From contig CAIQCJ010000002.1 of NCBI GenBank assembly GCA_903870315.1, forward strand, positions 4,820 to 68,819: a stretch of 64,000 bases of DNA. The letters run 5' to 3'. This DNA comes from an uncultured bacterium (lineage in GTDB: Bacteria > Patescibacteriota > Minisyncoccia > Phycocordibacterales > PALSA-1337). Below, piece after piece: positions 42,352-64,000 of the stretch. How positions within the stretch are numbered: position 1 is the stretch's first letter; the number at the start of each line of letters is the position of its first letter. The translations under genes were made by a program, and so were the position numbers. Under the pieces are notes generated by a model, which saw only the letters and a program-made list of their open reading frames with translations, had not been told where the DNA came from and made no database searches.

Positions 42352-42369
42352 TTTAGTAGTGTTAAAAGA

Positions 42370-45042: not shown

Positions 45043-45049
45043 TGTTATA

Positions 45050-46751: not shown

Positions 46752-46778
46752 GCGTTGATTATATCAACAAAGATGAGT

Positions 46779-47840: not shown

Positions 47841-47920
47841 TGACTACATTTTACAGTGTTAAGGCATTCTATAGCAAGTAGATGTACAGTTAAACAAAAT
47901 AGATATTTGGAGTGCACACA

Positions 47921-49852
47921 CTATGAAAGAATGGCTTTGATCCTTCTTACACCTTGCGCAACCGCTTCTTCTTTCTGAATCTTGAAATGCCATTTTCCTT
48001 CTGGACCAGATAATTCTTTGGTATTTTCTACATGAGGACCTCCACAAAACTCTTTTGAAAAGGCCCCATCTATAGTTTGAGTATCGCCACTACCTATAAG
48101 GTTGCCACCAATAAAATATACTGAGACATCGTCGTCATACTTTTCCCCGAATAGATGTAATGCACCAGTCTTTTCAGCCAGATTTTTTGGTAAGATGACG
48201 TTCTTAACTGGTAAAGCGGCTAGAATTTGTTCATTGACTATATCCTCAACTTTCTTCTTTTCTTCTTCGGTCATCTTGGCACCATGAGATAAATCGAAGC
48301 GTAATCGTTCTGGAGTTATGTTGGAACCCTTCTGTGTAGCAGTGTCACCAAGCACTTCTCTAAGTGCTTGGTGAAGAAGATGTGTGGCTGTGTGGTATCT
48401 CACCACCATAGGGTCAGCATGACCGTCTGTAGTACCTTCCAATCCTCCTTTGAATTTCTTCTCTGCACCAGAACGAGAAAGATCTTGGTGTTCCTTGAAT
48501 TCTTCATTGAATCCAGCCACATCTACTGCAAGATTATTCTCCTTTGCCAAGTCAACAGTCATGTCTATAGGAAAACCGTATGATGAGAACAATAAAAATG
48601 CCTCCGTCCCAGTTATGCTTGACCTGGTAGTATCACCAGTGTTGACTTTTTTTGTGGTAGCCAATTTACCAAATTCTTTTATACCAACCTCTAGAGTCCT
48701 CTCAAATTTCTCAGACTCACCACGTATCTCCGTCTTGATTTGGTGTTTATCAGAGAAGATATTTGGATATATATTCTTGTATGACTCGGCATATATATCC
48801 ACCAAATCATGCAAATGCACAGATAAATCTATGGACTTGGCATAACGTATAGCTCTGCGGAGCAAACGACGCAATATATATCCACGATCGGTGTTCGATG
48901 GAGTCACGCCATCACCTATAAGAAATGTTGCCGATCTTATATGATCAGATATTATACGTGCAGATTTCAGATCAAAATGTCTAGAGTTTTTTTTCAAAGC
49001 TGACATAACGGATCTAAAAAGATCTGTGTCGTATATATTGTCGACATCTTGCAATGCCATAGTCAGACGTTCTAAGCCAGCTCCAGTATCTACCGAAGGC
49101 TTCGGTAGATTACCGATAATCTTTCCATCTTTCTTCTCGTATTGCATGAAGACGTCGTTCCAAACCTCGACGACGTCACGTGCAACATCTGCTTGTATGA
49201 ACTGGTCGCGAGTTATAGGTCTACCACCAAATACATTTTTCACATCGTAATACATCTCTGTATCTGGTCCGCAAGGACCATTATCGCCAGCTTCCCACCA
49301 GTTGTTTGCTGCTGGTAAATAGAAAACTTTTCCGGCTTGTCCAAGTCTAGTGTCTCCTTGTGCGCCAAGGACATCGTTCTTCATAAATATGTCCTTCCAT
49401 ATACTTGCAGCCTCTTCATCTCTTGAAGCAATAGTATCTCCCTCAAAGACAGTCACGTATAAACGATTTGGATCTAGTCCGAGACCGCGATTTCCTATAT
49501 CTTCCGACTTCGATGTCAAAAACTCATAGCTCCAATGTATGGCCTCTTTCTTGAAATAATCTCCCAATGACCAATTACCAAGCATCTCAAAGAAGGTTCC
49601 GTGTGTACGGTCTCCAACATCGTCTATGTCCACAGTGCGCAGACATTTCTGTGCATCGACAAGACGTTGACCCAATGGATGTACTTTTCCAAGTAGAAAA
49701 GGTACCAGCGGCTGCATACCGGCTGTATTGAAAAGAGTGGCATTGGTAATACCTTTTTCGTTTGGTGTCACCAATGAAGCTGACGGTATAACAGCATGTC
49801 CCCTTTTCTTGAAAAACTCTAGAAATCTTGAACGGATATCTGTGGATGTCAT
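47921..49852 (-). CDS. alaS: Alanyl-tRNA synthetase (short form, 643 aa)
   Basis: N-terminal RSRFLEFFKKRGHAVIPSASLV, class II core, editing-domain HTATHLLHQALREVLG. Lacks the long C-terminal extension of ~870-aa AlaS. Confidence 0.85.
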   Translation of the reverse strand: MTSTDIRSRFLEFFKKRGHAVIPSASLVTPNEKGITNATLFNTAGMQPLVPFLLGKVHPLGQRLVDAQKCLRTVDIDDVGDRTHGTFFEMLGNWSLGDYFKKEAIHWSYEFLTSKSEDIGNRGLGLDPNRLYVTVFEGDTIASRDEEAASIWKDIFMKNDVLGAQGDTRLGQAGKVFYLPAANNWWEAGDNGPCGPDTEMYYDVKNVFGGRPITRDQFIQADVARDVVEVWNDVFMQYEKKDGKIIGNLPKPSVDTGAGLERLTMALQDVDNIYDTDLFRSVMSALKKNSRHFDLKSARIISDHIRSATFLIGDGVTPSNTDRGYILRRLLRRAIRYAKSIDLSVHLHDLVDIYAESYKNIYPNIFSDKHQIKTEIRGESEKFERTLEVGIKEFGKLATTKKVNTGDTTRSSITGTEAFLLFSSYGFPIDMTVDLAKENNLAVDVAGFNEEFKEHQDLSRSGAEKKFKGGLEGTTDGHADPMVVRYHTATHLLHQALREVLGDTATQKGSNITPERLRFDLSHGAKMTEEEKKKVEDIVNEQILAALPVKNVILPKNLAEKTGALHLFGEKYDDDVSVYFIGGNLIGSGDTQTIDGAFSKEFCGGPHVENTKELSGPEGKWHFKIQKEEAVAQGVRRIKAILS

Positions 49853-49918
49853 GGTTTACATACTAGCAATATTTATTCAAAACCTCAAAATCTTGCGCCG
49901 CAACGTAACTCAGTGTTT

Positions 49919-50779
49919 TTATCTGACTGGTGCCATGTTTGAGACCTCAGCAAGTACTACTTTTGCAGCTTCGGGATGTATGCCGACAGCGTTCAGTGAG
50001 CCAGGATTTGTAGTGATATCACTAACCACTATAATACCGAGACCAATCAAGTCTTTTTTCTGGTGGTGGTTCAAACTCACTAAGCAAGTGACGGGGTAAA
50101 GGCCATTACGATCTATTATCTTATGCAGACTGTTATCTCCTGGGTGATTCCAACTGATCATATTGAGACCTTTGCAAGTCCCGTACTGTATAGCTGCTTC
50201 AGTGAACTTGGTGTTTGTGAATAAATATCTGTCAGTAAGTTTCCTCTTTATACCACCATATTCGAATGTGGTTTCTGCTAAGTCATCAAACCTGGCTTTC
50301 ACATACAAGGCCACCTTGATATCGGACTTGAGACCAAACTCGTTGTGGAATTTCACTTCAGCCATAGCTAGGTCTTTTTCTTTCCAAGCAACTACATCCA
50401 TCTCGTGTTCTACACAAGTACCAAGAAGAGTTTGGTCAGTCACAGCCTCATAACCCCAGATTTTGAAAATCTTGGCAACGAATTTCTCAAATGGGAAACC
50501 GTCAGGACCAAGTTCGAACATGGCTCGACGAACAGAATATCTTGAAGCAACGGGAGTAGAATGTTTCTTCAGAAGTTCAAATGCTCGATGATATATATCT
50601 GTTGTGGGCATACCCTGCCACATCTCCTTCTCAACTTCATCGACAACATCGTCGATAGCTTGCGAGGAAGCACCAACGTGCCTGAGAGAATTTACTAGCT
50701 TCTCTTCCTCGAAGAGCTGTGTCGTGCCGTCAGACTTAGTGATCTGCATAAGATGATTCATAAAGATATTATAATACAA
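49919..50779 (-). CDS. ATP-cone domain fused to Mrr-like restriction-endonuclease-fold domain
   Basis: N-terminal ITKSDGTTQLFEEEKLVNSLRHVGAS (ATP-cone-like), C-terminal EMDVVAW ... AEVKF PD-(D/E)xK-like core. Confidence 0.5.
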   Translation of the reverse strand: MYYNIFMNHLMQITKSDGTTQLFEEEKLVNSLRHVGASSQAIDDVVDEVEKEMWQGMPTTDIYHRAFELLKKHSTPVASRYSVRRAMFELGPDGFPFEKFVAKIFKIWGYEAVTDQTLLGTCVEHEMDVVAWKEKDLAMAEVKFHNEFGLKSDIKVALYVKARFDDLAETTFEYGGIKRKLTDRYLFTNTKFTEAAIQYGTCKGLNMISWNHPGDNSLHKIIDRNGLYPVTCLVSLNHHQKKDLIGLGIIVVSDITTNPGSLNAVGIHPEAAKVVLAEVSNMAPVR

Positions 50780-50780
50780 T

Positions 50781-52019
50781 TTAGGATATTATTCCCCCCC
50801 CAAGACATATCTGATGATCATTATCTGTGTGTACCAAGGCATTATTCATATCATCAGTCGCTGTGTATATGACCAAAGATTGTCCTGGGGTTATAGGATC
50901 TGTTGTATGTTCTATAGTCAACACCGCCGAACTGCTGGAGTGCTTATTTCTCCTAGACTGCTCGGTAGAACGTTTACCAAGCTTACTGATAAATGCTTCT
51001 ATCAGTGGTTGACGATACCTAGAACGAATCATAACTTTTGTTCCAACAGCCGGGATTTGATTCGTCCAATTCATGTATGACAAATAAACCTCTTTTGATG
51101 AAAAAACGGACTTCTTATCATGATTTGCAACAGTCAGAGTATTTTTATCCATATCCTTCGCAATAATATAATATCTTCCATCGTCTGTTGTCTTCTTGGT
51201 TATAATAAATCCATGCCTTTCTCCTAGAGTGAAAAAGAGTGCCCCAGGATGATAACCTATGATATTGCCATCGACGTCTAGGACATCACCATGACCATAT
51301 CCTTTCTGATTTTTATTCAAATAATGTTTAAGAAAATCCTTGATATCTACCTTGCCGATGAAGCACAAACCCTGACTATCTTTCTTCAAGGCATTTGGTA
51401 GGCCGAACTTGGTTGCTAGTTTGCGTACGTCAATCTTTTCTAGATGTCCTACCGGAAACAATATATGTTCCAGATCTTTTTGGTTCAATGTCCAGAGAAA
51501 ATAAGACTGGTCTTTGTTTTTATCTTCTCCAGCCAGTAGAGAATAGCCACCAAGAGTTTTTACAGAATCTTTCTTAGTTGTAACATCTTTTATATTCTGA
51601 GCATAGTGACCTGTAGCCACGAAATCTGCTCCATGGGCTTTTGCCCATTTCCAGAATCCACCAAACTTAACCTCACGGTTACACATAACATCAGGGTTAG
51701 GTGTACGACCTAAAGAGTATTCAGAGATCATATAGTCAATGACACCTTCCTTGTATTCTTTGACCAGATCCAATGTCACAAAAGGAATACCAAGATATGC
51801 CGCCACACGCATAGCATCTCTACGTTCATCTTTCCAAGTGCAGGATATCCAATCCGGTTGCCAAACTTTGATGTAAACACCAATGATGTCGTAACCAGCT
51901 TTTTGTAATATAGCCGCAGATACAGCGCTATCAACACCGCCAGAAAGACCAACAAAAACCTTGGCTTTATGAGGTTTCATGCTTCTTATCTTTTGCTTTC
52001 TGGTTATTTGACTATTCAT
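50781..52019 (-). CDS. mnmA: tRNA-specific 2-thiouridylase
   Basis: PP-loop VFVGLSGGVDSAV. Overall MnmA length; catalytic Cys region CFIGKVD. Confidence 0.85.
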   Translation of the reverse strand: MNSQITRKQKIRSMKPHKAKVFVGLSGGVDSAVSAAILQKAGYDIIGVYIKVWQPDWISCTWKDERRDAMRVAAYLGIPFVTLDLVKEYKEGVIDYMISEYSLGRTPNPDVMCNREVKFGGFWKWAKAHGADFVATGHYAQNIKDVTTKKDSVKTLGGYSLLAGEDKNKDQSYFLWTLNQKDLEHILFPVGHLEKIDVRKLATKFGLPNALKKDSQGLCFIGKVDIKDFLKHYLNKNQKGYGHGDVLDVDGNIIGYHPGALFFTLGERHGFIITKKTTDDGRYYIIAKDMDKNTLTVANHDKKSVFSSKEVYLSYMNWTNQIPAVGTKVMIRSRYRQPLIEAFISKLGKRSTEQSRRNKHSSSSAVLTIEHTTDPITPGQSLVIYTATDDMNNALVHTDNDHQICLGGGIIS

Positions 52020-52091
52020 ATTTTATATGATAGCATCTTCGACGGAACAATCAAAATCAGAAAATTTCTAACAAAAGAAAGGGGCCTGTAA

Positions 52092-52478
52092 ATGTCGAGT
52101 ATACTAGTAGTAGAAAGTAACGAACACTTCCTACAGTTAACAGAAGAGCTTCTCAGATCTAGTGGCGGACACCATGTTATATGTGCCAGAAATGGTCATG
52201 ATGCACTAAATATCCTTGCAACGAGTAAAGATATTGAAGTCGTCTTAAGCGATACTCATCTCGAAATGAGTATGAATGGTCTAGAAATGATCGCCAAGAT
52301 TGACAAGTTGGGATACGATGTGGACATTGTCTTAATGTCTGGGTTTATGGATAAAAGTATTGAACACCAAGGGCAAAATGTCGGTGCTCAACACGTCATC
52401 CATAAGATTGGCATCGCCGAACACTTGGAACGTATTGGCCTGATTCGCGGTCAGGCACCGAAATCTTCCGATATCTAA
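52092..52478 (+). CDS. Single-domain response-regulator receiver protein (atypical acidic pocket)
   Basis: CheY-like length (128 aa), ILVVESNEH ... VVLSDTHLEM (phospho-acceptor Asp candidate) ... LMSGF. Confidence 0.5.
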   Translation: MSSILVVESNEHFLQLTEELLRSSGGHHVICARNGHDALNILATSKDIEVVLSDTHLEMSMNGLEMIAKIDKLGYDVDIVLMSGFMDKSIEHQGQNVGAQHVIHKIGIAEHLERIGLIRGQAPKSSDI

Positions 52479-52530
52479 CCCGTCTCAATGACAAGGAATA
52501 AATCCGAGTCGTTCAGACGGGTTTTTCTTA
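52479..52530 (+). terminator. Rho-independent terminator (cccgtct ... agacggg + TTTTT)
   Basis: Starts right after the receiver gene stop. U-run 52522-52526. Confidence 0.5.
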
Positions 52531-52626
52531 TGTCAGATTATCCAACAAACCTATAAATACCTAGTCGGGTCATTTCCGCCATTTGACCCTATCAGGTTAT
52601 AAAATAATACTCCACAGAATAAGATT

Positions 52627-53604
52627 CTACTGTAAGAATTTTTGTTTATTGGCTATATGACCACCGAAGGTCATAGCGTAATGCATCGCACCACTTTTAT
52701 CAGAAAGATAGAAGAAGTATTTTGTGGTTGTGGCATTAACAGTATCAGATATCGCATCTAGTCCAGGATTATCTATAGGTGTTGGTGGTAAGCCAGGATG
52801 TTTATATAGATTGTATGGAGAATCTGTCGCCAGATCAGATACTGTGAGCTGGTCTGAAGTCTTATTTAGGAAATAATAGAATGGTGGATCTACTTGAAGT
52901 GGTATCTTGTTTACTATGCGTTTCCACAAAATCCCAGCAATGATCTGTCTATCAGTTGTACTGGTAGCCTCCTTTTCAACTATAGATGCCATAGTTACTA
53001 TATCCGCAAGTGGTTTGTCGAAAGATTTTATCTTGTCGCTTAAAGGAGATATATGCTTGTCGAAGTTGCTACGCATAATACTTATGACTTCATTCGGTTT
53101 AACATTTTCCAAGAAGAAATATGTATCTGGAAAGAGATATCCTTCATACTGACTTGAAGAAGCTATGAAGTCTATATCGTCGAAAGCTGGTATGGATTTT
53201 TTCAAGATGGTCGCCATAGCTTTAGTATTTGTACCTTCTGGTATAGTTACCTTAATCTTGGAAAGTCCTTGAACTCCATAAGCTGTACGATAAGCAACTC
53301 GGATAACAGACTGTGGTTGACTGAAAAGATAATCACCACTTATAACGCGTGTCCTCTCACCGGTAATGACTACAAAGGTCTTATATAGAAACTGTGATCT
53401 GATAATGTGGTTATCTGCCAGTATCTTGGCCACTTGGGAAAGTGATGAGCCGTCTTTTATGGAGATGATAACGCGGCCAGGAAAATTATTTGGTGGTATA
53501 GCAGCGAAGATAGCCGCGATGAGCACTATCACCACAGCCAAAATAATACCGATAAAAACATTGCGCTTTATTGAGCACTTGGGTGATTCTATTACTGGAT
53601 TCAT
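52627..53604 (-). CDS. mltG: Endolytic murein transglycosylase MltG (YceG family)
   Basis: N-terminal TM, YceG-like domain length and motifs (GxYxF-like SGDYLFSQP; C-terminal PLQVDPPFYY ... LYKHPGLPPTPI). Confidence 0.6.
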   Translation of the reverse strand: MNPVIESPKCSIKRNVFIGIILAVVIVLIAAIFAAIPPNNFPGRVIISIKDGSSLSQVAKILADNHIIRSQFLYKTFVVITGERTRVISGDYLFSQPQSVIRVAYRTAYGVQGLSKIKVTIPEGTNTKAMATILKKSIPAFDDIDFIASSSQYEGYLFPDTYFFLENVKPNEVISIMRSNFDKHISPLSDKIKSFDKPLADIVTMASIVEKEATSTTDRQIIAGILWKRIVNKIPLQVDPPFYYFLNKTSDQLTVSDLATDSPYNLYKHPGLPPTPIDNPGLDAISDTVNATTTKYFFYLSDKSGAMHYAMTFGGHIANKQKFLQ

Positions 53605-54887
53605 ATAGGAAGATTGGCTGGGGCCTCAGACTTCTTGGAAGGCACACGTTCAAGTGTAGGCGTACTAGCAACCGCTCCTGGGAAGTGGAAGAGTGTAGCT
53701 AACTCTTCACCATTCAAGACTAGTGGGTTATGGTCAAAAGGAGGATAGAAATAGGAGCGACGCTTGTAAGCCATGATCACCCACTTAGACATACGATTGC
53801 GACGTATATCTTTGTAATCTTGCCAAGGGTATTCTAGTTTCCCCATCCAAGGACCTCCTGGTTTGAAACCGTTTAGATGTTCTGCACTGAAATGTTTGAA
53901 GTTGCCAATGATACCACCGATATTCGAAGGATTGAAAAAATCTTTCTTCGCCATATAAATAACGCGAATACCAGCATCGAAGGCCTGCTTCGTCACACTA
54001 CGCTCAAGTGCTTCGACGATAGATTGCTCACCCTTTGATATAGAGGGCATTTTTGTATATCCAGTAGCTTCATCCTTCAAGCCAGCAACCTTAGTCTTGG
54101 CGTCACGCATAAGTATCTTGTGGACTTCCTCTTCCGCAGAAGCCTTCCAAGCATCATGCTTCTTCCACCAATGTCCCGGCTTTGTCTGCTCTTTTTTGTG
54201 AGCACGAATAAGTATCTGAGCCCAGATCTCTTGGTTGGGACCAACACTACCAAGGAATTCTAAGAAAGGGACTAACGGATCAACCTTATATTCTTCTTTC
54301 GGATCTTTGTCTAGGCCATAGTCTACATAGGTTTTTATTGGGTATGAATCCGGCTTAGTAAAAGCGAACTCTGTAGCCCAGACTTTCATTTCGTTCTTAT
54401 CAAAATGAACCGAACGTGCGTAATCTTCTCTTTCGGTAACTTCTATTCCTGGAAATGTAGCGTACAGGGCTGTCTGGACATTGTTCTTGGCGGACTGTCG
54501 CATCCAGATGAAGAACTTAACCTGACCTTCCACAGAGACGATCTCTAGCGAGAACCAGGGCCTAGTCTCACCCATCCAAAGTATCTTGTACCAGTTACCA
54601 TCTGCTGTATTATGGAAAGTATTCAAGAACATCTCCATCGCCAAAGGAGATTTATAGAGATCTTTTGGTAGTTTGATCTCTATCACGCAATACTTCTGCG
54701 AGAAAAAGAACTGCGCTCTGACGTAGCGCATCCATAGATCCCAGAAAATCCTACCGAAAATAATAGCTAGAAATATTGGAGATAATGTCACCAAATAACT
54801 CACAACCGTGGGAGTCATTGCGCTCTTGAATGTGGAAAAGATACTAGCAAAAGCCTGGTCCAATGTCATTGCAACATTATACCACAT
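53601..54887 (-). CDS. Hypothetical membrane-associated protein
   Basis: 428 aa, N-terminal hydrophobic segment, W-rich. No motif recognised. Confidence 0.35.
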   Translation of the reverse strand: MWYNVAMTLDQAFASIFSTFKSAMTPTVVSYLVTLSPIFLAIIFGRIFWDLWMRYVRAQFFFSQKYCVIEIKLPKDLYKSPLAMEMFLNTFHNTADGNWYKILWMGETRPWFSLEIVSVEGQVKFFIWMRQSAKNNVQTALYATFPGIEVTEREDYARSVHFDKNEMKVWATEFAFTKPDSYPIKTYVDYGLDKDPKEEYKVDPLVPFLEFLGSVGPNQEIWAQILIRAHKKEQTKPGHWWKKHDAWKASAEEEVHKILMRDAKTKVAGLKDEATGYTKMPSISKGEQSIVEALERSVTKQAFDAGIRVIYMAKKDFFNPSNIGGIIGNFKHFSAEHLNGFKPGGPWMGKLEYPWQDYKDIRRNRMSKWVIMAYKRRSYFYPPFDHNPLVLNGEELATLFHFPGAVASTPTLERVPSKKSEAPANLPI

Positions 54888-54907
54888 CTATTCTGTTTAT
54901 CGAAACA

Positions 54908-55954
54908 CTATATAGCTACTGGAGAATATTTACCTTCTTTGTTGTGAACGAAATACTTAGGATTTTGGAGATTGACCAAAATAGTATTTGGTTTGACATA
55001 ACGTTCTTTCATGACTTTTCCTATAATCTCATCTTTAGCCATAGGACCATTTTTCTTCAAGATCTCTGAAATGACGTCACGTACGATACCAGGAGTATAA
55101 CCCCATTCTGCCAAAGCGTAGAGCCCACGTCCGACAAGTACGAAACGTTTGTCTTTTATAAGTTCGTTGTGAGTGGTAGCGACATGAGCTTTCTTGTTGA
55201 ACATCTTCTCTATCTGCTTGGCGACGTCGCGGAAATGTATAGGTGAACCATGTTTGCGTATTACCAAGAAAGCATAATCGCGCATACCTTTTGTGCTTAT
55301 GTTTGGAGAATCAGACTTACCCCAGTCACCAAGAGAATTCCTACCAATGTTCTTGGAAATAGCCAACCAACGACGGACAATCTCTTGATTCTTATAGCGC
55401 TCAGAGACATCTTCAAGATGACTCAGGAACTTATTTACCATCTCAGATTCTGGAAGAAGATCATCTGTCTTCAAGTTGGCATATAGATTCTTCAAAGCAG
55501 ATTCAACCTTCTTTGCAACCTCTTCGTTGACGTGCCAACGATGACGGAAATCATCATCCTCCTTCTGCTTCTTAAAAGGCTCACCTACAACCAATAGAAA
55601 GTGAATGTGGTTCTGGAGAGACTTATCTTTCGAGACATGGCCAAGGAAATCATCTTCCACTACTATTCCACCAAGAGAGTGCAATAGCTCTTCTATCTCG
55701 GCAAAAGCAGCCTTCTCAAGCTTATATTCTTCAGACTTACGAACATTGGCTATACCATAGTTTTCTATCTGTCTGACACGTTCACGAGTGATGCCGTATT
55801 TCTTACCTATAGAATCCAAGGTCATACGCTTGGTGTCCTTGCCTAGACCATAACGGTAGACGAGAACTTCATGCGCACGATCTGGTAGAGATGACAAAAG
55901 CCTTTTTACGACTTGCTTAGGTTTGAATGATATAGCTGATTGGTTAGAAGCCAT
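54908..55954 (-). CDS. Sigma-70 region-4-like HTH domain protein with uncharacterised C-terminal domain
   Basis: N-terminal LTLDSIGKKYGITRERVRQIENYGIANVRK is a classic sigma region 4.2 HTH signature. Remainder unassigned. Confidence 0.4.
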   Translation of the reverse strand: MASNQSAISFKPKQVVKRLLSSLPDRAHEVLVYRYGLGKDTKRMTLDSIGKKYGITRERVRQIENYGIANVRKSEEYKLEKAAFAEIEELLHSLGGIVVEDDFLGHVSKDKSLQNHIHFLLVVGEPFKKQKEDDDFRHRWHVNEEVAKKVESALKNLYANLKTDDLLPESEMVNKFLSHLEDVSERYKNQEIVRRWLAISKNIGRNSLGDWGKSDSPNISTKGMRDYAFLVIRKHGSPIHFRDVAKQIEKMFNKKAHVATTHNELIKDKRFVLVGRGLYALAEWGYTPGIVRDVISEILKKNGPMAKDEIIGKVMKERYVKPNTILVNLQNPKYFVHNKEGKYSPVAI

Positions 55955-56047
55955 GATATTGATTTAATAATAATCTTGTTGCTCTATATATAGATACGTT
56001 TTATCACCTATACTATATAAAGTCAAGCTATTCTACACCGAAATAGC

Positions 56048-59000
56048 TTATATGACAATACTAACTAATTTACATTTTACGACAATAATCTTTTTGACCT
56101 CCTTACCATCGATCCATTTTTTGACTTCGGGAATATTCTTTGCGGATTCTTCCATAGATTTCTTTGCTTTCTCATCACCGATATTTGCTGTGACAATGTC
56201 TATCTCAAAAGATCCGCGGATTTTACCATTTACTTGAACAGCTATAGTAACTGTAGAGTCTACAGCCAACTCTGCTTTGTATATAGGCCAACTTTCTAAG
56301 TGAATCGACCTCTTATTTCCTAAGCCAGACCACAACTCTTCAGTCATATGAGGAGCAAACGGCGCCAAGAGTTTGATCAATGATTCAAACTGCTCTTTGT
56401 TTATACCAGTTTTTTCTAGTTCATTGACTGTGATCATCAGTGTGCTTATGGCAGTGTTGAAATGTATACTAGCTATATCATCTGACACTTTTTTGATGGC
56501 CTTATGAATGATTTTTTCAGATTTAGCATAATTTTCTGGACTAATACCAGTATCTGTATCATTGGTGACTAACTTGTCAGCCAGGCGCCAAACCCTCTCG
56601 ACGAAACGACGAGAGCCGATCATACCATCTGTACTCCAGGAAATCTGTTGATCGAAAGGGCCCATAAACATCTCATATATACGCAAAGTATCGGCTCCAT
56701 AGATATTTACCACGTCAACAGGATCTACAACATTGCCGAAACGTTTGGACATCTTACGACCATCTTCGCCCATAATCAGACCAACGTGTTGAAGTTTTGC
56801 GAAAGGCTCAACAGTCGATACAACACCTATATCATACAAAAACTTATGCCAGAAACGAGCATATATAAGATGACGTGTAGCATGCTCGGCTCCACCAATA
56901 TAGAAGTCTACTGGGGACCAATATTTTTCTATTTTAGGATCAACTAAGGATTTGGCGTTCTTGGGATCCATATAACGTAGGTAATACCAAGATGAGCCGG
57001 CCCATTGAGGCATAGTGTTTGTTTCGCGTTTAGCCTTACGGCCACAAATAGGACATTTCGTATTTACCCACTTATCTATAGTAGCCAATGGAGATTCGCC
57101 TGTTCCAGTCGGTTCATATGACTTAACCTTCGGCAGCTTTACTGGTAAATCTTTTTCTGGTACAGGAACTACGCCACACTTCTCACAGTGTACAAGCGGT
57201 ATCGGTTCCCCCCAATATCGCTGTCTCGAGAAAACCCAGTCGCGAAGCTTGTATTTTGTAACCAATTTACCATGAACAAAATCAGTAATGTCCTTCTTAA
57301 CAGATCCCGATGAACTTCCATCAAATCTACCAGAGTTAACCAGGACACCATCATCTGTATAAGCGCTGTCTCTGTTTGTCTTATCCCAGAAATAAAGAGA
57401 GAAACGGATATCATGTTTAGTCTCATTGAGTTTGGTGATTACAAGTCTACTGTCTACCCATTCGTAGCTATGCTTCTCCAACTCTTCTTCGGCTACTTTT
57501 TTCTGTGATCCACTGTTTAACTTGAACAATACACCGGTTATATGTGTGTCGTGATTCTCGTCCTTCCAAGAAGCAAAGAAGTGTCCGTGTGATTCTCCAA
57601 GTATTCTTTCGAATTTAACATCATCGTAACCAGTCTCTTCCAAGATTTCTCTCTTAGCAGAGGCTACCGAATCTTCACCTTCTTCTATACCACCGGTTAT
57701 AAACGTCTTCCTTGGAGTCTTCTTCCAATTCAAGATCAGATATTTGTCTTCAGACCAGTGTCTGACTATCGCTGTTATAGAAGAACGCTTATTGGTTTTC
57801 TTGAGAAGAACTGGAGCACCGCCAGAAGTGTAATCTTTGAAGTCAGGTATGATGACATTCTTAATCTGCAGACCAAACTTCTGAGCAAAAGCAAAATCTC
57901 TCTCATCATGAGCTGGTACAGCCATAACAGCACCAGTTCCATAGTCAGCCAAAACATAATCCGCTATCCAGACTGGTACTTTTTCTCCGTTGGCTGGATT
58001 GATAACAGAGATGCCCTTAAGCTCAACCCCGGTCTTCTCTTTGGTGGCGTCAGTACGGTCTATCTCAGACTTATTTTTCGTGCGTGAGATATAAGATTCA
58101 ACCTCTACGCGGTTTGTCACAACCTGCAAGAGCTCGGCGACCAATTTGTGTTCTGGTGCGAGTACGACATAAGTCACACCAAAAAGTGTGTCTGGTCTAG
58201 TGGTAAAGACTTCTATGTCTTTGACACTGGCTTTTTTGTCTAAACTTTTCGCTTGTTCTTTTGAGATTTCAATCTCAAACTTCAAAAGAGAGCCCTCTGA
58301 TCTACCTATCCAATCTTTTTGAGATTTAACTATGGAAGCTGGCCAGTCCAGTGCTCTACGACCGCTGGTATCTTTCATGTCGATATCATTAAGCAGACGC
58401 TCGGCATAATCCGTTATCTTGAGAACCCACTGACGAAGTGGTTTCTTCTCTACAGGCGTACCACAACGCTCACAGCGACCATCTTCGACATCTTCGTTGG
58501 CTAACCCAGTCTTACAAGAAGGACACCAGTTTATCGGTTCATATGATTCGTAAGCCAAACCTTTCTTCCATATCTGTAAAAAGATCCACTGTGTCCAATG
58601 ATAATACTTAGGATCAGTAGTATTGATCTCTCTCGACCAATCATAATCACATCCGAGTATCTCCAGCTGTTCTTTGTAATGCACGACATTCTTCTTAACA
58701 GAAACTTCTGGATTGGTCTTAGTCTTAATAGCATAATTCTCTGCAGGTAAACCGAAGGCGTCAAAACCCATAGGATGGAGCACGTTGAAGCCTTGCATAC
58801 GCTTCATCCTAGACACGATATCTGTAGCTATATAACCTTTGGGGTGACCAACATGAAGTCCGACTCCAGACGGATATGGAAACATATCCAAGATATAGTA
58901 TTTCAGCTTGATAGAACTGATTTTCTTGTCGGAGATAACCTCAGATCTATATATCTTACTAGTAGCCCATTTCTTCTGCCATTTTTTCTCGAGCTTTTTG

Positions 59001-59056
59001 TGATCATACAAAGATAAAGACTTGGAAGAGTCTTGATTTGTAGGCATCTTTTTCAT
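56048..59056 (-). CDS. leuS: Leucyl-tRNA synthetase carrying an inserted NUDIX-box domain
   Basis: HIGH (LHVGHPKGY), KMSKS (KMSKRFGN), VPAHDERDFAFAQKFGL block. ~165-aa insertion (residues ~403-568) containing GGIEEGEDSVASAKREILEETGY (GX5EX7REUXEEXGU NUDIX box). Confidence 0.85.
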   Translation of the reverse strand: MKKMPTNQDSSKSLSLYDHKKLEKKWQKKWATSKIYRSEVISDKKISSIKLKYYILDMFPYPSGVGLHVGHPKGYIATDIVSRMKRMQGFNVLHPMGFDAFGLPAENYAIKTKTNPEVSVKKNVVHYKEQLEILGCDYDWSREINTTDPKYYHWTQWIFLQIWKKGLAYESYEPINWCPSCKTGLANEDVEDGRCERCGTPVEKKPLRQWVLKITDYAERLLNDIDMKDTSGRRALDWPASIVKSQKDWIGRSEGSLLKFEIEISKEQAKSLDKKASVKDIEVFTTRPDTLFGVTYVVLAPEHKLVAELLQVVTNRVEVESYISRTKNKSEIDRTDATKEKTGVELKGISVINPANGEKVPVWIADYVLADYGTGAVMAVPAHDERDFAFAQKFGLQIKNVIIPDFKDYTSGGAPVLLKKTNKRSSITAIVRHWSEDKYLILNWKKTPRKTFITGGIEEGEDSVASAKREILEETGYDDVKFERILGESHGHFFASWKDENHDTHITGVLFKLNSGSQKKVAEEELEKHSYEWVDSRLVITKLNETKHDIRFSLYFWDKTNRDSAYTDDGVLVNSGRFDGSSSGSVKKDITDFVHGKLVTKYKLRDWVFSRQRYWGEPIPLVHCEKCGVVPVPEKDLPVKLPKVKSYEPTGTGESPLATIDKWVNTKCPICGRKAKRETNTMPQWAGSSWYYLRYMDPKNAKSLVDPKIEKYWSPVDFYIGGAEHATRHLIYARFWHKFLYDIGVVSTVEPFAKLQHVGLIMGEDGRKMSKRFGNVVDPVDVVNIYGADTLRIYEMFMGPFDQQISWSTDGMIGSRRFVERVWRLADKLVTNDTDTGISPENYAKSEKIIHKAIKKVSDDIASIHFNTAISTLMITVNELEKTGINKEQFESLIKLLAPFAPHMTEELWSGLGNKRSIHLESWPIYKAELAVDSTVTIAVQVNGKIRGSFEIDIVTANIGDEKAKKSMEESAKNIPEVKKWIDGKEVKKIIVVKCKLVSIVI

Positions 59057-59180
59057 AAAGACAATAATAGCTTAAAATAGCTCCAAAAACAAAAGCCCCA
59101 AGGACACACAACCAGATTTGGTGTGCATCCTCAGGGGCCATCCTAGAATCATCAGATTCAACTGATAATATCTTGAATCA

Positions 59181-59915
59181 CTAAGAACTCGACTTCCCAT
59201 CAAACAGCGTCTGACCAACAGGACCTTTCAGTTCCCATTTCCAGCAAGGTTGTGTCATACGTCCAACGATCTGCTTATGATATTCAGAAAAAGAAGCTCT
59301 ATTTGGCTCAAAGTTCTCATGGAACGAGGCTTCATAGACATGATTTTGAGGATCATAATCTATTTTCCAGACACCAAGACTCATGAGATCGAGCACTGAC
59401 TGCGCCCAACCATATGGAAACAACATCTGTTTTCCATCTTCTTCTTCGTTTGGATACTTCAGCTTCCCATCCGCAATAACGTCATCAACTTCATAGTGAA
59501 TATCATCTAGCCGCAGATGATTACGCCGATGACCAAACAGACCCTTGTAGATGTAAGTATATTTTCGTTTGCCAGCATTTTCATCTGGCCGACGACTAGA
59601 CATCAAGAGGCCAAACATGTTCAATATGGAACCATACTTGGTCAAGGTTTCAATATTACCTCGGATGGTGAAAGACCCATCCAATATCTCAAGTGTTTCC
59701 AATGCGCGTTTCTCTAGATCTCCAGCCGTAACATATGTCCAATCCAACATCTTGATGATTGGTTCTGGTATCTCCGATGCTGTATCATGATTAACCGTAA
59801 AATGATGCGGTTGCAATCCCAAAGATTCGCGAGCGATGGATATGGCTTGTGTGTTTGTCGCTATGCTCACTGAGGCTCCTTTGTTGCCAATGTGGCAACT
59901 TGTTTTAAGGATCAT
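59181..59915 (-). CDS. Hypothetical protein (weak metallophosphoesterase-like motifs)
   Basis: 244 aa. GDLEKRA and IRGNIE weakly resemble GDxVDRG/GNHE of PPP phosphatases. Not convincing. Confidence 0.25.
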   Translation of the reverse strand: MILKTSCHIGNKGASVSIATNTQAISIARESLGLQPHHFTVNHDTASEIPEPIIKMLDWTYVTAGDLEKRALETLEILDGSFTIRGNIETLTKYGSILNMFGLLMSSRRPDENAGKRKYTYIYKGLFGHRRNHLRLDDIHYEVDDVIADGKLKYPNEEEDGKQMLFPYGWAQSVLDLMSLGVWKIDYDPQNHVYEASFHENFEPNRASFSEYHKQIVGRMTQPCWKWELKGPVGQTLFDGKSSS

Positions 59916-59988
59916 GGATCACCCGACTCGAAAGAGTCGAAATGGTGTCTGAAGTAAGATTACGCATCTACAGAAAAAAGTCAATTAT

Positions 59989-61101
59989 CTAAATTTTAAA
60001 CTCTATAACCTCTCCATCCTTCACAATATATTCTTTACCTTCTGTACGTATAAGACCTTTCTCACGAGCGGCGGCATATGAGCGTATTGCAAGTAACTTA
60101 TCCCACTCAATGATCTCAGCACGAACAAACTTCTCCTTGAAGTCTCCATGTATGGCTGTACCAGCTTCTGGGGCTGTCCAACCACGCTTGATAGTCCACG
60201 CACGCGTCTCATCCTCACCAGTTGTAAAGTAAGTGATTAGGCCAAGAAGCTCATAACCTTTGCGGATGAGATCATTTACACCATCATCGTGGACACCGAG
60301 TCCTTCACGCATCTCTATCTTATCTTCTGCGTCTAGATCTTTGAGCTCTTGTTCTATACCAGCATCAACTATGACATGGCCAGCTTTTGTCTCACTGAAA
60401 AAATGAATAAGTTTAGTCCAGCGATCATCTTTTACTGTATCACCACCAATCTCATCGAGGTTCTTAGCACCAGCTTTTTTATTCAAGACATATATGAACG
60501 GCTTAGCAGTGATCAAACAGAGTTGCTTAAGAAATGGCGCTTCAAACTCGTCAGCAACTATGGAAGAAGCCAGCTTACCAGCCTCCAGGGCTCTCACCAG
60601 GCGTTCTATCAGACCAGCTTCGATGATAGCTTCTTTCTTACCAGATCTGACTTCTTTGTTAAGATTTGCACTTCTTTTTGTAATGGTCTGTAGGTCAGCT
60701 AGGACAAGCTCTAGATTTATGACTTCTATATCTTTTACAGGATCAATCTTACCATCGACGTGGATGATATTCTGATCTTCGAAGATACGCACAACCTGAG
60801 CGATAGCATCTGTCTCGCGGATATTTGATAGGAATTTATTGCCGAGACCTTCACCTTCTGAAGCACCTTTGACCAATCCAGCAATGTCGACGAATTCCAC
60901 AGCAGCTGGAATGGTCTTGGCAGATACAGAAAATTCACTCAACTTCACTAGACGCTCATCTGGTACTGCAACCACACCTATAGATGGATCAATTGTACAA
61001 AAAGGATAATTCTCAGCGGCAACACTCTTCTTAGTAAGTGCGTTAAAGAGCGTGGATTTACCCACGTTTGGTAGACCAACTATGCCAATACTTAAACTCA
61101 T
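59989..61101 (-). CDS. ychF: Ribosome-binding ATPase YchF (Obg-family GTPase/ATPase)
   Basis: [20 protein letters not shown]1 motif. C-terminal TGS domain. 370 aa. Confidence 0.9.
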
Positions 61102-61207
61102 AATAGAACCACTATATCAGAAGACATGATTCTTACCAAGAAGCTTTTAAGAATTTCTCAAGAAGCTACGAGTAAATACTAAGTGGATATAATGAAGTGA
61201 TAACAGA

Positions 61208-61732
61208 TCACATCCCTGTTGGTCTAGCTAGACGCCAGTTCGTAAGTATCGTGACAAGACTAACAGAGTCCGCGACATTGCGGGCATTTGTCCAAGTGAC
61301 TGTGCTGGTGACAGTCGCGTATGAGGCACTGGTAAATGGTGCACTAGACGGGCTCAGAGATAGTCTGATCGATCTATGGAATTTAGTATCGACTGTGCTC
61401 GAAGAATTTCCATTAAAATACCAGAACGATGTACCGGACACGCTACTAGTAGCCAGACCACAAGGTCCTGGTATACAAGAGCTAAATGGAACGGAAAAAG
61501 CTGTATTGTCTGTGGTAGAGGCGTTTGTACCAAAGTCCCTAATGTTGCCGACTGCCTCTATACCCTCTCGAGCGATCTGTACGGCTTCTAACTTGTCTAG
61601 ATCTATACGAGTAGAAGTATTCGCATCCACAAGCAAATTCCCGGCAACTATAGAACCTATGGCGAATATTGCTATAGCCAAAACTAGTTCCATAAGACTA
61701 AATCCTCTCTTTGTAAAAATTTTTCTATTCAT
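61208..61732 (-). CDS. Type IV pilin / pseudopilin-like protein
   Basis: N-terminal KRGFSLMELVLAIAIFAIGSIV prepilin cleavage/methylation motif. Confidence 0.6.
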   Translation of the reverse strand: MNRKIFTKRGFSLMELVLAIAIFAIGSIVAGNLLVDANTSTRIDLDKLEAVQIAREGIEAVGNIRDFGTNASTTDNTAFSVPFSSCIPGPCGLATSSVSGTSFWYFNGNSSSTVDTKFHRSIRLSLSPSSAPFTSASYATVTSTVTWTNARNVADSVSLVTILTNWRLARPTGM

Positions 61733-61753
61733 AGAGTTTCATAAAATATAATA

Positions 61754-62251
61754 TCAATTCTCAACTACTGTTCCAAGATTGTCTAGAGTCAGAGTTTTTG
61801 TCAGACCATTCCAAACTATAGATATGGTACCAGTGGCTGTCGGTGTACCTGTATGCTTAGCAAATCCGATCTCGTTCATCGGTGTTGGAAAAGTTATATA
61901 TGTACCAGCCAAAAGCTGGTATTGGTCATCTGCCAAAGTATTGTGAGAAGAACAAGCTGTACCGGTCGTACCAGCATATAGAGCATAAGAAGCAGTGGTT
62001 GTACCAGTAGACCAGAAAACATTATTGAGACACAGTCCGTAAGCGCTATCATTCTTCTGCGTGACCGCCTGACTTCTAGCACGAGTCAAAGAATCACCAA
62101 GCTGACCCTGCATACCAGTGATGGTCTGACTATTGTAAAACTGTATACCAAGTGGAGCCGTTACAAGAGACACCACCGATATTACAGCGATGACGATGAT
62201 CATCTCTATGAGAGTAAAACCGGATCTATGAGCTGATCTTGTGTAGTACAT
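61754..62251 (-). CDS. Type IV pilin / pseudopilin-like protein
   Basis: N-terminal RSGFTLIEMIIVIAVISV class III signal peptide. Confidence 0.65.
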   Translation of the reverse strand: MYYTRSAHRSGFTLIEMIIVIAVISVVSLVTAPLGIQFYNSQTITGMQGQLGDSLTRARSQAVTQKNDSAYGLCLNNVFWSTGTTTASYALYAGTTGTACSSHNTLADDQYQLLAGTYITFPTPMNEIGFAKHTGTPTATGTISIVWNGLTKTLTLDNLGTVVEN

Positions 62252-62305
62252 ATATAAATAAGATTATATCACACAGAAACAATATGAGATTAACTATATA
62301 TGAGA

Positions 62306-63358
62306 CTATCCCAAACTACCAGTAAGTTTGTAGATTGGTAGGATGATAGACAAAGCTAGAGTCGCAACGGCCACACCAATAATGACAAGCAATACTGGTT
62401 CTATGACTACCGGTAGACGCTTGGTCTTGATGTTAATCTCTTTTGTATAATAATCCGCCAGGTTTGTGAATGATTCTTGCAAAGATCCAGAGTTCTCTCC
62501 GACAGAAAGAAGGTTGACGAAGTTGGGAGGATAAAGTATAGGATACAACTTCACAGTTTCCGTTACAGAGACTCCATTCAAAAGTCTGCTCCTAATATCG
62601 GTCAATGCTTTCTTATAATACAGGTTACCTGTTCCGACAAAGGCTATCTCCAAAGATTCATCTAGAGTCAACCCTGACCTCAAAAGTGTAGCCAAAAGTT
62701 GACTGAACAAAGCTAGTTGATAGTCGCGTATCATGTCACCGATAAAACCAAGATGTATGGTCACGGTGTCTATTACCATTTTTACTGGTTTGAGGCGCTT
62801 GAGTACTTGAAATATGACTGAGACCAAAATTATACCGAAAAGTACATACATCCAATACGACTGCAAGAAAACCGACGCATCTAAGATGAACTGGGTTATC
62901 CAAGGCAACTGTACGTGCAGACTAGAGAACATGGGAACAAGCTTAGGTAATATAAATACAGCCAAACCACCACCAAGCACAACCGTAGCTGCTATGACAA
63001 GCTTAGGATATAGAGTCACTGAACTGATCTCTTTTCTCAAGTTACTATCACGACTCAACCACTCCGCCAAAAAGTCTAGATTTTCCGGTAAAGATCCTGA
63101 GAGTTCTCCGGCACGCACCAAGCTAGTGACGACAGTGCCAAAACGGCTGTTACTGTTCGACATGGCCGTATATAGCGAGACACCTTTTGACAAGTGATCT
63201 CGTAATTCCGATAGAGTTTTTTTCAGATTTGATGAACGTGCCTGGCTAGCCAATGATAAGATAGCTTCATCTATAGAGACGCCTCCACGTAAAAGCACAG
63301 ACAAGTTTTTGGCAAACTCGACCTGGTCCTCAAGTTGTAGTGTTGTCTTGAATGTCAT
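62306..63358 (-). CDS. Type II secretion / type IV pilus platform protein (GspF/PilC family)
   Basis: Two T2SSF-type repeats, three TM segments. Adjacent to GspE-like ATPase. Confidence 0.8.
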   Translation of the reverse strand: MTFKTTLQLEDQVEFAKNLSVLLRGGVSIDEAILSLASQARSSNLKKTLSELRDHLSKGVSLYTAMSNSNSRFGTVVTSLVRAGELSGSLPENLDFLAEWLSRDSNLRKEISSVTLYPKLVIAATVVLGGGLAVFILPKLVPMFSSLHVQLPWITQFILDASVFLQSYWMYVLFGIILVSVIFQVLKRLKPVKMVIDTVTIHLGFIGDMIRDYQLALFSQLLATLLRSGLTLDESLEIAFVGTGNLYYKKALTDIRSRLLNGVSVTETVKLYPILYPPNFVNLLSVGENSGSLQESFTNLADYYTKEINIKTKRLPVVIEPVLLVIIGVAVATLALSIILPIYKLTGSLG

Positions 63359-63398
63359 GTGAATATGCCTACTATCCCGGAGTTCTTACTCACCTAGA

Positions 63399-64000
63399 CT
63401 AGTTGGTAAGTCCCAGTATCTCTTCAAATGTTGTCAGTCCTTTGAATACCAATCCGACTCCATTGTAGAACATAGGAATCATACCATTTTCTGCGGCTTT
63501 TGACTCTATAGATGAGGCTGACGACTTCTTGATAATAAGGTCTCTTATATCATCGTCGATCTCCATGACTTCAAATATACCCATACGGCCCATATATCCA
63601 GTATGGTTACAGTTCTTACAACCAGTTCCTTTATAAAGTTTCAAGTCTTCTATACGCTGACCTGGAAAATGTTTCGACATAAGTGTATTAAACTCTGGAG
63701 TATCCTTTATACGTTTTATCTCTGAGAGATTTTCTGGATGAGGTGGATACAAGATCTTGCAATATGAACAAACCTTTCTTACAAGTCTCTGTGCTATGAC
63801 AACATTCACCGAGGAAGCCACAAGGAAAGGCTCAACTCCCATTTCTGAAAGGCGTGGGAAAATAGTGGCGGCGTCGTTGGCATGCATAGTCGAGAGTAGC
63901 ATATGTCCGGTCATGGCTGCATTCACGGCGATAGAAGCTGTCTCATTATCACGAATCTCACCAACCATAATTACGTCTGGGTCTTGGCGAACGATCTCAC
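63399..64000 (-). CDS. Type II secretion / type IV pilus assembly ATPase (GspE/PilB family), N-terminus outside window
   Basis: Its C-terminal ~190 aa lie in the window: [33 protein letters not shown] (His box), tetracysteine CSYCK ... CKNCNHTG. Open frame continues to window end. Confidence 0.8.

Follow-up and report, generated by a model that had tools for sequence, protein, structure and literature searches.

A NUDIX domain inserted in the CP1 editing domain of a bacterial leucyl-tRNA synthetase and its exchange among related bacteria

The 64-kb stretch of DNA analysed here (the window), from a bacterium of the candidate phyla radiation (CPR), encodes a genuine leucyl-tRNA synthetase (LeuRS, gene leuS) that contains, inside its CP1 editing domain, a genuine and apparently active domain of the NUDIX fold whose catalytic box is complete. 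In related bacteria, this module, at an insertion point termed site C, and further hydrolase modules are gained, lost and exchanged as cassettes inside one essential gene. The resulting lineage-wide system of exchangeable hydrolase modules at several LeuS sites is new, and full-text literature searches turned up no earlier account of a LeuRS with a NUDIX domain, or with serine-hydrolase or HAD domains alongside one.

The host gene is a single open reading frame of 1002 aa (Table 1). Its product matched the NCBIfam model TIGR00396 (leuS_bact) over the full length with 980.9 bits (cut-off 548.4) and T. thermophilus LeuRS (1H3N) with E = 2e-203, and the full-length AF2 model reached a pLDDT of 82.5 and a pTM of 0.73. 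Like the bacterial LeuRSs of T. thermophilus (1H3N/2BYT) and E. coli (4AQ7), it possesses a full class I core, zinc knuckles, an anticodon-binding and a C-terminal domain, and a CP1 domain in which the Thr-rich and Asp motifs are intact. Within the KMSKR signature, K768, M769, K771 and R772 were invariant across 42 LeuS sequences and S770 was at least 90% conserved. The editing motif GTG...AHD(E/Q)RD was present as YGTGAVMAVPAHDERD at aa 372-387, and T286, R287, D289, T290 and P381-D387 were invariant in 42 LeuS sequences, with or without a module. Unlike those enzymes, the window LeuS is missing the leucine-specific domain, aa 763-769 bridging T. thermophilus residues 579 to 638; this insertion domain, at about residues 580-637 in T. 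thermophilus, varies among bacteria and is not strictly defining. A further insertion site of the family, site A, showed just an 8-aa extra stretch relative to 1H3N.

Table 1 Features of the leuS gene and its NUDIX insert in the window
Feature	Position (nt)	Strand	Basis
leuS, bacterial-type leucyl-tRNA synthetase, host of the insert	56048..59056	-	ORF, TIGR00396, 1H3N, AF2 model
HIGH-type class I signature HVGH (aa 68-71)	58844..58855	-	translation; invariant
Site A, unoccupied (aa 224-236, DIDMKDTSGRRAL)	58349..58387	-	insertion map vs P0126
CP1 editing domain, N-terminal part (aa 247-402)	57851..58318	-	PF13603 match
Thr-rich motif TTRPDT (aa 285-290) within CP1	58187..58204	-	translation
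AVPAHDERD within CP1 N-terminal part	57896..57922	-	translation
Inserted NUDIX module (aa 403-562), hot spot site C, CP1 editing domain	57371..57850	-	alignment
Nudix box GGIEEGEDSVASAKREILEETGY (aa 455-477), catalytic E470, E473, E474	57626..57694	-	translation
CP1 editing domain, C-terminal part after insert (aa 563-606, DSAYTDDGVLVNSGRFDG...)	57239..57370	-	1H3N alignment, translation
KMSKS-type signature KMSKR (aa 768-772)	56741..56755	-	translation; conserved in relatives

The Pfam NUDIX model PF00293 matched aa 440-539 with 41.8 bits (gathering score 21.1) and split in two the match to PF13603, the model of the LeuRS editing domain, positions 1-145 of the 185 in this profile falling on aa 247-407. 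The 23-aa segment GGIEEGEDSVASAKREILEETGY agreed with the signature GX5EX7REUXEEXGU at every specified position and was the only such box within the window. These matches bear out the initial annotation, which had described a complete NUDIX box inside a 1002-aa LeuS and had located it to the exact nucleotide; both of the flanking blocks it named, VPAHDERDFAFAQKFGL and DGVLVNSGRFDG, were present, and of the two ends it gave for the insert (57353-57850), 57850 was retained and the other was re-placed at 57371. T. thermophilus LeuRS residues 362 and 374 correspond to aa 402 and 563 of the window LeuS, the CP1 C-terminal part aligning from residue 374 on, which puts ~160 aa in place of ~11; insert-free close relatives have a turn of ~7 residues ('GGDISKA') at this point. 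The window enzyme thus differs from other bacterial LeuRSs in carrying a 160-aa NUDIX domain instead of a 7-11-residue CP1 hairpin turn, sited ~15 residues past the editing-site Asp motif. In a comparison of 58 modules, E470 and E474 were invariant and E473 was at least 90% conserved, and R29, W49, K103, N106, E130, H134 and W138 (module numbering) stood out as family-specific conserved residues. Among site-C modules, the strict box was found in 88 of 99. A normal lineage-specific domain lacking the catalytic Glu residues had been considered as an alternative; the domain is lineage-specific, but the REUXEEXG core with its Glu residues is kept in 97 of the 99.

To place the insert among its relatives, an insertion map was drawn against the insert-free reference P0126. 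LeuS of related bacteria exhibited five insertion hot spots and 18 module combinations: NUDIX modules occurred singly or in tandem, and the three loops other than sites A and C held serine-hydrolase modules, at sites B and D, or HAD modules, at site E. A NUDIX module occupied site C in ~100 orthologues from independent assemblies, and one or two occupied site A in 60/120 relatives; the NUDIX types of site C also occurred at site A, which is outside the CP1 core. Closely related LeuRSs contained none, one, two or three NUDIX modules, with types differing within one LeuRS, and the relatives' LeuS carried up to five inserted hydrolase modules and reached a length of 1564 aa. No module at all was present in LeuS with cores 76-80% identical. 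Furthermore, LeuS pairs with 90-94% identical cores had site-C NUDIX modules just 21-37% identical, and the pairs with discordant modules showed sharp DNA breakpoints (the pair involving P0077 was compared at the protein level only), indicating that the modules are exchanged as cassettes. LeuRSs of other phyla were devoid of the NUDIX insert, in agreement with the original view of it as a non-standard LeuS feature. In a single-sequence search of species-representative contigs, among which the window's own species was absent, the best match was 51% identical in the insert region. The initial annotation had overlooked the exchangeable modules found across the lineage at several sites, of which the window is one instance.

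LeuS accounted for 109 of the best 148 family representatives, and the copies that were not free-standing lay nearly all in LeuRS and hardly ever in other proteins. The free-standing members were ~160 aa long and sited far from leuS. Four small stand-alone proteins (P0238, P0244, P0246 and P0278) combined a reduced CP1 fragment with a NUDIX domain at the same position, and one relative contained a weak HGTP_anticodon-like domain. A 157-aa free-standing NUDIX protein, P0007, is named 'leuS' in its database record. Its gene is flanked by a Sua5/YrdC gene on one side and a 621-aa gene without a Pfam match on the other, and lies ~2 kb upstream of def and fmt; as the locus is not close to leuS, its being a piece of a split LeuS was rejected, and the name is probably an annotation transfer.

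The module has the alpha/beta/alpha Nudix fold. Its top structural match was 2AZW, an uncharacterised Nudix protein of E. faecalis, and the best characterised neighbours were diadenosine/diphosphoinositol polyphosphate hydrolases, a set represented by M. tuberculosis Rv2985, yeast DDP1, human DIPP1/NUDT3, T. thermophilus Ndx1 and the Aquifex Ap4A hydrolase; MutT1/Rv2985, NUDT15 and NudI were also among the neighbours. Identity to every solved Nudix enzyme was only 14-24%, and it was 15-24% for that set and 2AZW, from which the module is further distinguished by being embedded in another enzyme and by its own family-specific residues. The named Nudix equivalogs YfcD, NudB, RppH, YtkD and NudE all scored far under their NCBIfam cut-offs and were rejected, the RppH models giving 19-22 bits against cut-offs of 116-118. 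The PWPFP motif of the NADH pyrophosphatase class (SQPWPFPxS) was found in 0/194 modules, and no Pro was among the residues found at +16 of the modules, the position (~16 after the box) at which Pro marks the ADP-ribose pyrophosphatase class.

Overall, the module is best explained as probably active NUDIX accessory cargo in LeuRS, which is exchanged as a cassette and would be devoted to nucleoside-polyphosphate hydrolysis. It would be a NUDIX pyrophosphohydrolase at the tip of a CP1 surface beta-hairpin in an otherwise complete LeuRS, lying outside the aminoacylation and editing machinery and belonging to a small, mainly patescibacterial NUDIX family with free-standing members and members at LeuRS sites A and C. 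The invariant E470 and E474 together with the conserved E473 make catalytic activity very likely, judged from sequence. The module at a given site is replaced by a different NUDIX type, presumably through homologous recombination, for which the strongly conserved LeuRS stretches flanking the module would serve as homology arms. The compound hydrolysed would arise at or near the synthetase, and, in a genome of very small size, tethering to LeuRS may ensure that the module is co-expressed with the synthetase and stays close to it.

Aminoacyl-tRNA synthetases make Ap3A-Ap6A as side products of the aminoacyl-adenylate. These dinucleoside polyphosphates (Ap(n)A) are the best substrate candidates because, among characterised structures, the nearest appear to be those of diadenosine/diphosphoinositol polyphosphate hydrolases; the assignment is a tentative best guess. 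According to Dunn 1999, in the account given in PMC5389931, the Ap(n)A-hydrolase type is marked by an X-loop Tyr located 16-18 positions past the box. The window module has Phe at +16 and +17, unlike the Ap(n)A hydrolases and 2AZW, and across 192 modules position +17 was Tyr in 81 and Phe in 88. The Ap4A activity proposed in the initial annotation receives modest support, from the structural neighbours and the aromatic residue at +17, tempered by Phe in place of the diagnostic Tyr.

The module might instead be a generic house-cleaning NTP pyrophosphatase of the MutT type, acting for example on 8-oxo-(d)GTP or damaged nucleotides, whose fusion to LeuRS would bring only co-expression in a reduced genome and be unrelated to synthetase chemistry. 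This reading, which we consider doubtful, accommodates the MutT1/Rv2985, NUDT15 and NudI neighbours, the dispensability and free-standing occurrence of the modules, and the insertion of unrelated hydrolases (Ser_hydrolase, HAD) into the same gene. The 'MutT (NUDIX family)' labels that JGI attaches to free-standing homologues would also suit it, but these are generic COG transfers. It leaves unexplained why a single LeuRS may hold as many as three NUDIX modules that differ in type, why types are swapped between near-identical hosts, and why LeuRS is almost the sole host, an observation that points to some LeuRS-specific reason not captured by a simple hitch-hiking housekeeping enzyme.

A further possibility is that the module is functionally coupled to LeuRS quality control: near the CP1 editing site it would hydrolyse a nucleotide species bound to LeuRS, for example the end of the bound tRNA, an inhibitor that mimics the adenylate, or a non-cognate aminoacyl-adenylate. 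The location of the module so close behind the Asp motif, the predominance of LeuS among the best family representatives and the HGTP_anticodon-like domain of one relative are in line with this proposal, and the four stand-alone reduced-CP1 proteins suggest that the CP1-NUDIX pairing itself has been retained. However, the editing motifs are invariant whether a module is present or absent, the same NUDIX types occur at site A and free-standing, far from leuS, and the RppH models score far too low. In addition, Nudix enzymes cleave pyrophosphate linkages, whereas aminoacyl-adenylates are acyl-phosphate anhydrides and do not contain a linkage of that type. Coupling to quality control is accordingly improbable, and the module is unlikely to act directly in proofreading by LeuRS, as close relatives with 76-80% identical cores do without it; the proofreading-associated activity suggested initially is further weakened by near-identical LeuS with unrelated NUDIX types.

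Very little probability attaches to a catalytically silent structural or RNA-binding appendage, for instance one compensating for the missing leucine-specific domain. The absence of that domain from the window LeuS would fit, and some Nudix-fold domains are non-enzymatic (PMC5389931). Nevertheless, module-free close relatives are likewise without any compensating domain. Moreover, the boxes of non-enzymatic Nudix domains are usually degenerate, whereas the strict box and the catalytic Glu residues are conserved in this family.

An assembly chimera, a frameshifted two-gene fusion or an intein-like selfish element has a negligible chance of explaining the insert: although such artefacts exist in databases, as the fragmented LeuS P0012 shows, the protein identical to the window LeuS was found on 32 contigs from four sources (NCBI, JGI, Logan and ENA), which together with the ~100 orthologues with the same site rules out the chimera raised in the initial annotation as well as a split gene. 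In P0012, the neighbouring genes of the same assembly were also broken, and its fragmentation is read as frameshift errors. The insert is in frame and without composition shift (GC 0.402 vs 0.413); its first residues are IPDFKD and its last DKTNR, DSAY coming next, with no Cys/Ser/Thr...His-Asn splice-junction pattern at its boundaries and no terminal or flanking repeats around it. A Pfam search of the insert returned NUDIX only, so no endonuclease domain is present, and an intein or mobile element was ruled out. A defence-system or phage origin of the module was rejected as well: PADLOC defence models gave no match for the module, and PHROGs and BFVD searches gave generic Nudix matches only. 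The free-standing P0007 had a marginal PADLOC match (E = 0.0015, candidate PDC-S07).

Several known systems resemble this arrangement in part. The INS domain of ProRS, related to YbaK, and the editing domain of AlaRS, related to AlaX, are likewise hydrolase domains inserted in or fused to a synthetase with free-standing homologues elsewhere. Those domains deacylate aminoacyl-tRNA and hold a fixed position in their enzyme family, whereas the LeuS module has a Nudix (pyrophosphohydrolase) fold, is polymorphic in presence and has its types swapped. The hypervariable region of flagellin can carry an enzymatic domain (flagellinolysin), and here too conserved flanks form the scaffold, and probably the recombination arms, for a variable, possibly enzymatic cassette; flagellin, however, is a structural protein of the cell surface and subject to antigenic selection, while the LeuRS scaffold is a cytoplasmic essential enzyme. 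The NCBIfam model NF040702 ('isoleucine--tRNA ligase, N-acetyltransferase domain-containing') offers a curated precedent for a bacterial class Ia synthetase with an extra enzyme domain, but concerns a different synthetase and a GNAT domain, and neither hot spots nor cassette exchange are in evidence there. In an NCBIfam search, the LeuS-NUDIX form matched no curated model of this kind. Databases label the LeuS-NUDIX proteins plainly as 'leucine--tRNA ligase'.

In eukaryotes, extra domains on aminoacyl-tRNA synthetases are a classic theme; active enzyme domains inserted within a bacterial synthetase are, to our knowledge, rare. Whatever the substrate, the LeuS modules, in genomes ~90% identical, illustrate intragenic recombination and the tolerance of domain insertion with a clarity unusual for a natural example, and they are relevant to LeuRS protein engineering, CPR genome evolution and annotation. 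If the module hydrolyses Ap(n)A, a producer of the alarmone would be physically coupled to its destruction, and the role of Ap4A made by synthetases, a matter of long debate, would become directly accessible to study. It is also conceivable, though not the likelier case, that LeuRS in this patescibacterial clade functions as a platform: at five recombination hot spots, hydrolase cassettes of several NUDIX types, of serine hydrolase and of HAD phosphatase would be inserted, stacked and exchanged under selection, yielding adaptive diversity. Speculatively, the cassettes would then destroy different nucleotide-type molecules acting on or arising at LeuRS, such as Ap(n)A alarmones, LeuRS antibiotics that mimic the aminoacyl-adenylate, or phage or host signalling nucleotides. 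If so, they would constitute a cassette-based accessory or defence layer within an essential translation enzyme.

The leuS gene of the window is a single open reading frame that contains the NUDIX region. Its product matched the NCBIfam model TIGR00396 at 980.9 bits (cut-off 548.4) and T. thermophilus leucyl-tRNA synthetase (LeuRS; 1H3N) at E = 2e-203, and the motifs HVGH, KMSKR, TTRPDT and AVPAHDERD were all intact. Judged by its sequence, it is a genuine bacterial LeuRS. The leucine-specific insertion domain was missing, T. thermophilus residues 580-637 having no counterpart (window 56741..56770, aa 763-772). The Pfam NUDIX model PF00293 matched aa 440-539 at 41.8 bits (gathering score 21.1), between two separate stretches of match to the LeuRS editing-domain model PF13603. 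The initial annotation, which had described a NUDIX box within LeuS, was correct in coordinates and description; no second Nudix box was found in the 64-kb window. In the alignment to T. thermophilus LeuRS, window residues 402 and 563 paired with residues 362 and 374, and insert-free close relatives had only a short turn (e.g. GGDISKA) between the strands '...IKxVI' and 'AYxxxGxLxNS'. This pairing and the short turn indicate that about 160 residues are grafted onto a beta-hairpin tip of the CP1 editing domain, ~15 residues past the editing-site Asp motif. The insert showed no compositional anomaly (GC 0.402 vs 0.413 in the remaining gene), and no flanking repeats were found.

Coordinates of leuS, its NUDIX module, neighbouring genes, LeuS insertion hot spots and related proteins (P) at loci of relatives (L)
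Feature	Location	Strand	Description
leuS	56048..59056	minus	single ORF, 1002 aa
NUDIX module	aa 403-562, nt 57371..57850	minus	~160 residues, from LeuRS alignment
Nudix box GGIEEGEDSVASAKREILEETGY	nt 57626..57694	minus	23 residues; full fit to GX5EX7REUXEEXGU
244-aa ORF	59181..59915	minus	between ychF and leuS; no Pfam, PADLOC or PHROG match
ychF	59989..61101		flanks the 244-aa ORF opposite leuS
Site A	ahead of CP1 linker, between 'YAERLL' and 'LDWP'		one NUDIX or tandem pair; 60 proteins
Site B	first CP1 hairpin		Ser_hydrolase/alpha-beta hydrolase module, ~180 aa; 23 proteins
Site C	CP1 hairpin, filled in window		NUDIX; 99 proteins
Site D	catalytic-domain Cys-X2-Cys knuckle		Ser_hydrolase, ~195 aa; 5 proteins
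Site E	other catalytic-domain Cys-X2-Cys knuckle		HAD phosphatase, ~190-212 aa; 13 proteins
P0055	aa 254-432		module example in a relative
P0073	aa 614-810		module example in a relative
P0023	aa 644-855		module example in a relative
P0007	L001 6001-6474		157-aa free-standing NUDIX; NCBI MDB5189859.1, named 'leuS'
P0244	L084 412-1251, L085 112-951		stand-alone mini-CP1 + NUDIX; contigs 27% GC
P0213	L083 197-952		same-family NUDIX with ~100-aa N-terminal domain; gene looks stand-alone

An AlphaFold2 model of the module, built on a 58-sequence alignment, gave a confident Nudix fold (pLDDT 95.7, pTM 0.90), its secondary-structure elements following each other as in the Nudix alpha/beta/alpha sandwich. 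Module residues held a pLDDT of 87-95 in the full-length LeuS model (pLDDT 82.5, pTM 0.73). The insert is a member of the Nudix superfamily. Its structural matches included fungal and oomycete Nudix effectors and, by Foldseek, the Aquifex Ap4A hydrolase and RppH; at 14-24% sequence identity, these are functional leads and give no substrate assignment.

A LeuS 100% identical to that of the window over 999 aa was present on 32 contigs (NCBI, JGI, Logan, ENA), and a module occupied site C, a hot spot in the CP1 editing domain, in 99 of the 120 best LeuS homologues; the reading of the insert as an artefact was rejected on these grounds. A strict Nudix box was retained in 88 of the 99 site-C modules and the REUXEEXG core in 97. 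Among 58 diverse modules, residues E470 and E474 were invariant, E473, G455 and G456 were at least 90% conserved, and family-specific positions beyond the box were likewise conserved. All named sources among the LeuS matches were Patescibacteria, Parcubacteria, Paceibacterota, Pacebacteria or Taylorbacteria MAGs, or 'bacterium', and loci with the insert in a species-representative genome scan belonged, with few exceptions, to MAGs bearing the label of a Patescibacteria group. In sampled LeuS from other phyla, site C spanned 20-45 residues and contained no Nudix box. The insert therefore appears to be specific to one lineage. Searched against 1.84 billion proteins, a module profile matched only 192 representatives at E <= 1e-30; LeuS or LeuS fragments made up 109 of the best 148 of these, and the others were mostly free-standing and 154-207 aa long. 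LeuRS is almost the sole host.

Aligned to a reference that lacks inserts (P0126, 810 aa), the 120 LeuS revealed five insertion hot spots; besides the five proteins filled at site D, a sixth had a shorter insert (72 aa) shifted by one position. Modules occurred in 18 combinations, and the longest proteins reached 1564 aa, with up to five modules each. Only site C was filled in the window LeuS. Its nearest relatives by core identity (76-80%) included proteins with no module (P0046, P0099, P0084-86) and others with site A only, site C only, two modules at site A (A2) plus C, or A2+C+E. The module is dispensable over short evolutionary time scales. Two sites in LeuS of the clade (P0020-P0138) carried Ser_hydrolase/alpha-beta hydrolase modules (PF06821, PF00561), and a HAD phosphatase module (PF13419) occurred as well. 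A further module type was a 110-aa site-D insert without Pfam match (P0096, aa 773-882). In two Sungiibacteriota-type MAGs (L034, L040), LeuS had a ~148-aa non-NUDIX insert at site C from ~nt 3528 ('KEAPIKSYLMGAKDVSDKELATLG...'), so the same hairpin takes other cargo.

The NUDIX modules grouped by sequence type and not by site, several clusters mixing site-A, site-C and free-standing members. Core identity and site-C module identity were essentially uncorrelated (r = 0.14 over 4753 LeuS pairs), and pairs with 90-94% identical cores carried site-C modules only 21-37% identical (e.g. P0038/P0041, P0040/P0043, P0031/P0077). Between loci L086 and L087, DNA identity was ~90% across leuS and the downstream sigma70_r4/HARE-HTH gene with two exceptions, a clean ~470-nt indel at site A and the site-C module, within which alone identity fell to 42-57%, with sharp edges on both sides. 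Such sharp-edged divergence is characteristic of module replacement by recombination, for which the highly conserved LeuRS flanks may serve as homology arms.

The slot upstream of leuS was variable in relatives sharing the downstream gene order: in L087 a Fic-domain gene separated leuS from ychF, in L086 a phage integrase was encoded upstream of leuS, and in L088 a resolvase/recombinase upstream of ychF. In the window, ychF adjoined a type IV pilus/T2SS-like cluster (61208..63968; two prepilin-type N-methylation proteins, T2SSF and T2SSE). Downstream of leuS lay the sigma70_r4/HARE-HTH gene, a 428-aa ORF and YceG, an order kept in L086 and L087; L088 had the first two genes before the locus ended. 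The 428-aa ORF had no Pfam match in the window, its positional counterpart in relatives being DUF8128. ARAGORN found no tRNA genes in the whole window (1..64000).

The catalytic motif of the module was complete and selectively maintained, and the module is probably an active pyrophosphohydrolase. LeuRS editing and synthetic motifs were invariant with or without it, and we infer that it is accessory cargo with no part in proofreading. Its substrate may, as a tentative best guess, be dinucleoside polyphosphates, Ap(n)A, because Ap(n)A/DIPP-type enzymes are its closest structural neighbours among characterised proteins, because Phe or Tyr stands at the X-loop position 17 residues past the box in 169 of 192 modules (Phe in the window), and because aminoacyl-tRNA synthetases make Ap4A, from enzyme-bound adenylate. 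Tyr at this position correlates with Ap(n)A activity, according to the summary of Dunn 1999 in PMC5389931. NADH and ADP-ribose pyrophosphatase motifs were absent from the modules, and the RppH, NudB, YfcD and NudE models scored the module far under their cut-offs.

A functional NUDIX-CP1 link is kept open by stand-alone 'mini-CP1 + NUDIX' proteins, which may act in trans as CP1-NUDIX units or be relics. These proteins (P0238, P0244, P0246, P0269, P0278; 270-390 aa) carried a NUDIX at the site-C position of a reduced CP1-like fragment. In the fragment, 'ERPELIYG' stood as a degenerate Thr-rich motif and 'PAHNQED' or 'PAHIEED' as a degenerate Asp motif, and the neighbouring genes were non-LeuS genes. 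In P0236, P0273 and P0288, as in P0213, a same-family NUDIX followed a ~100-aa N-terminal domain, which in P0213 showed a weak likeness to class II synthetase HGTP_anticodon, sub-threshold in Pfam at E = 0.0017. Far from any leuS, the free-standing P0007 gene had a Sua5/YrdC gene on one side and, on the other, a gene of 621 aa without Pfam match; def and fmt lay ~2 kb downstream. P0008 was likewise a free-standing 157-aa NUDIX named 'leuS' in its NCBI record; the name on both is probably an annotation transfer from NUDIX-bearing LeuS. Their box variant was GGIEEGQ...ARTEILEETGY, with Gln and Thr at box positions 7 and 15, respectively.

No description of the LeuS-NUDIX architecture was found in the open-access full-text literature, which does not prove it unpublished. 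NCBIfam holds a curated model for 'IleRS with GNAT domain' but none for LeuS-NUDIX. The ProRS INS domain is an inserted hydrolase with free-standing paralogues (YbaK); the LeuS module resembles it, by analogy, in this respect but differs in fold and chemistry. In their polymorphic cassette behaviour, the LeuS modules are closer, likewise by analogy, to flagellin hypervariable regions. Host and insert are each of a known kind; the part that might be more fundamentally new is the cassette system.
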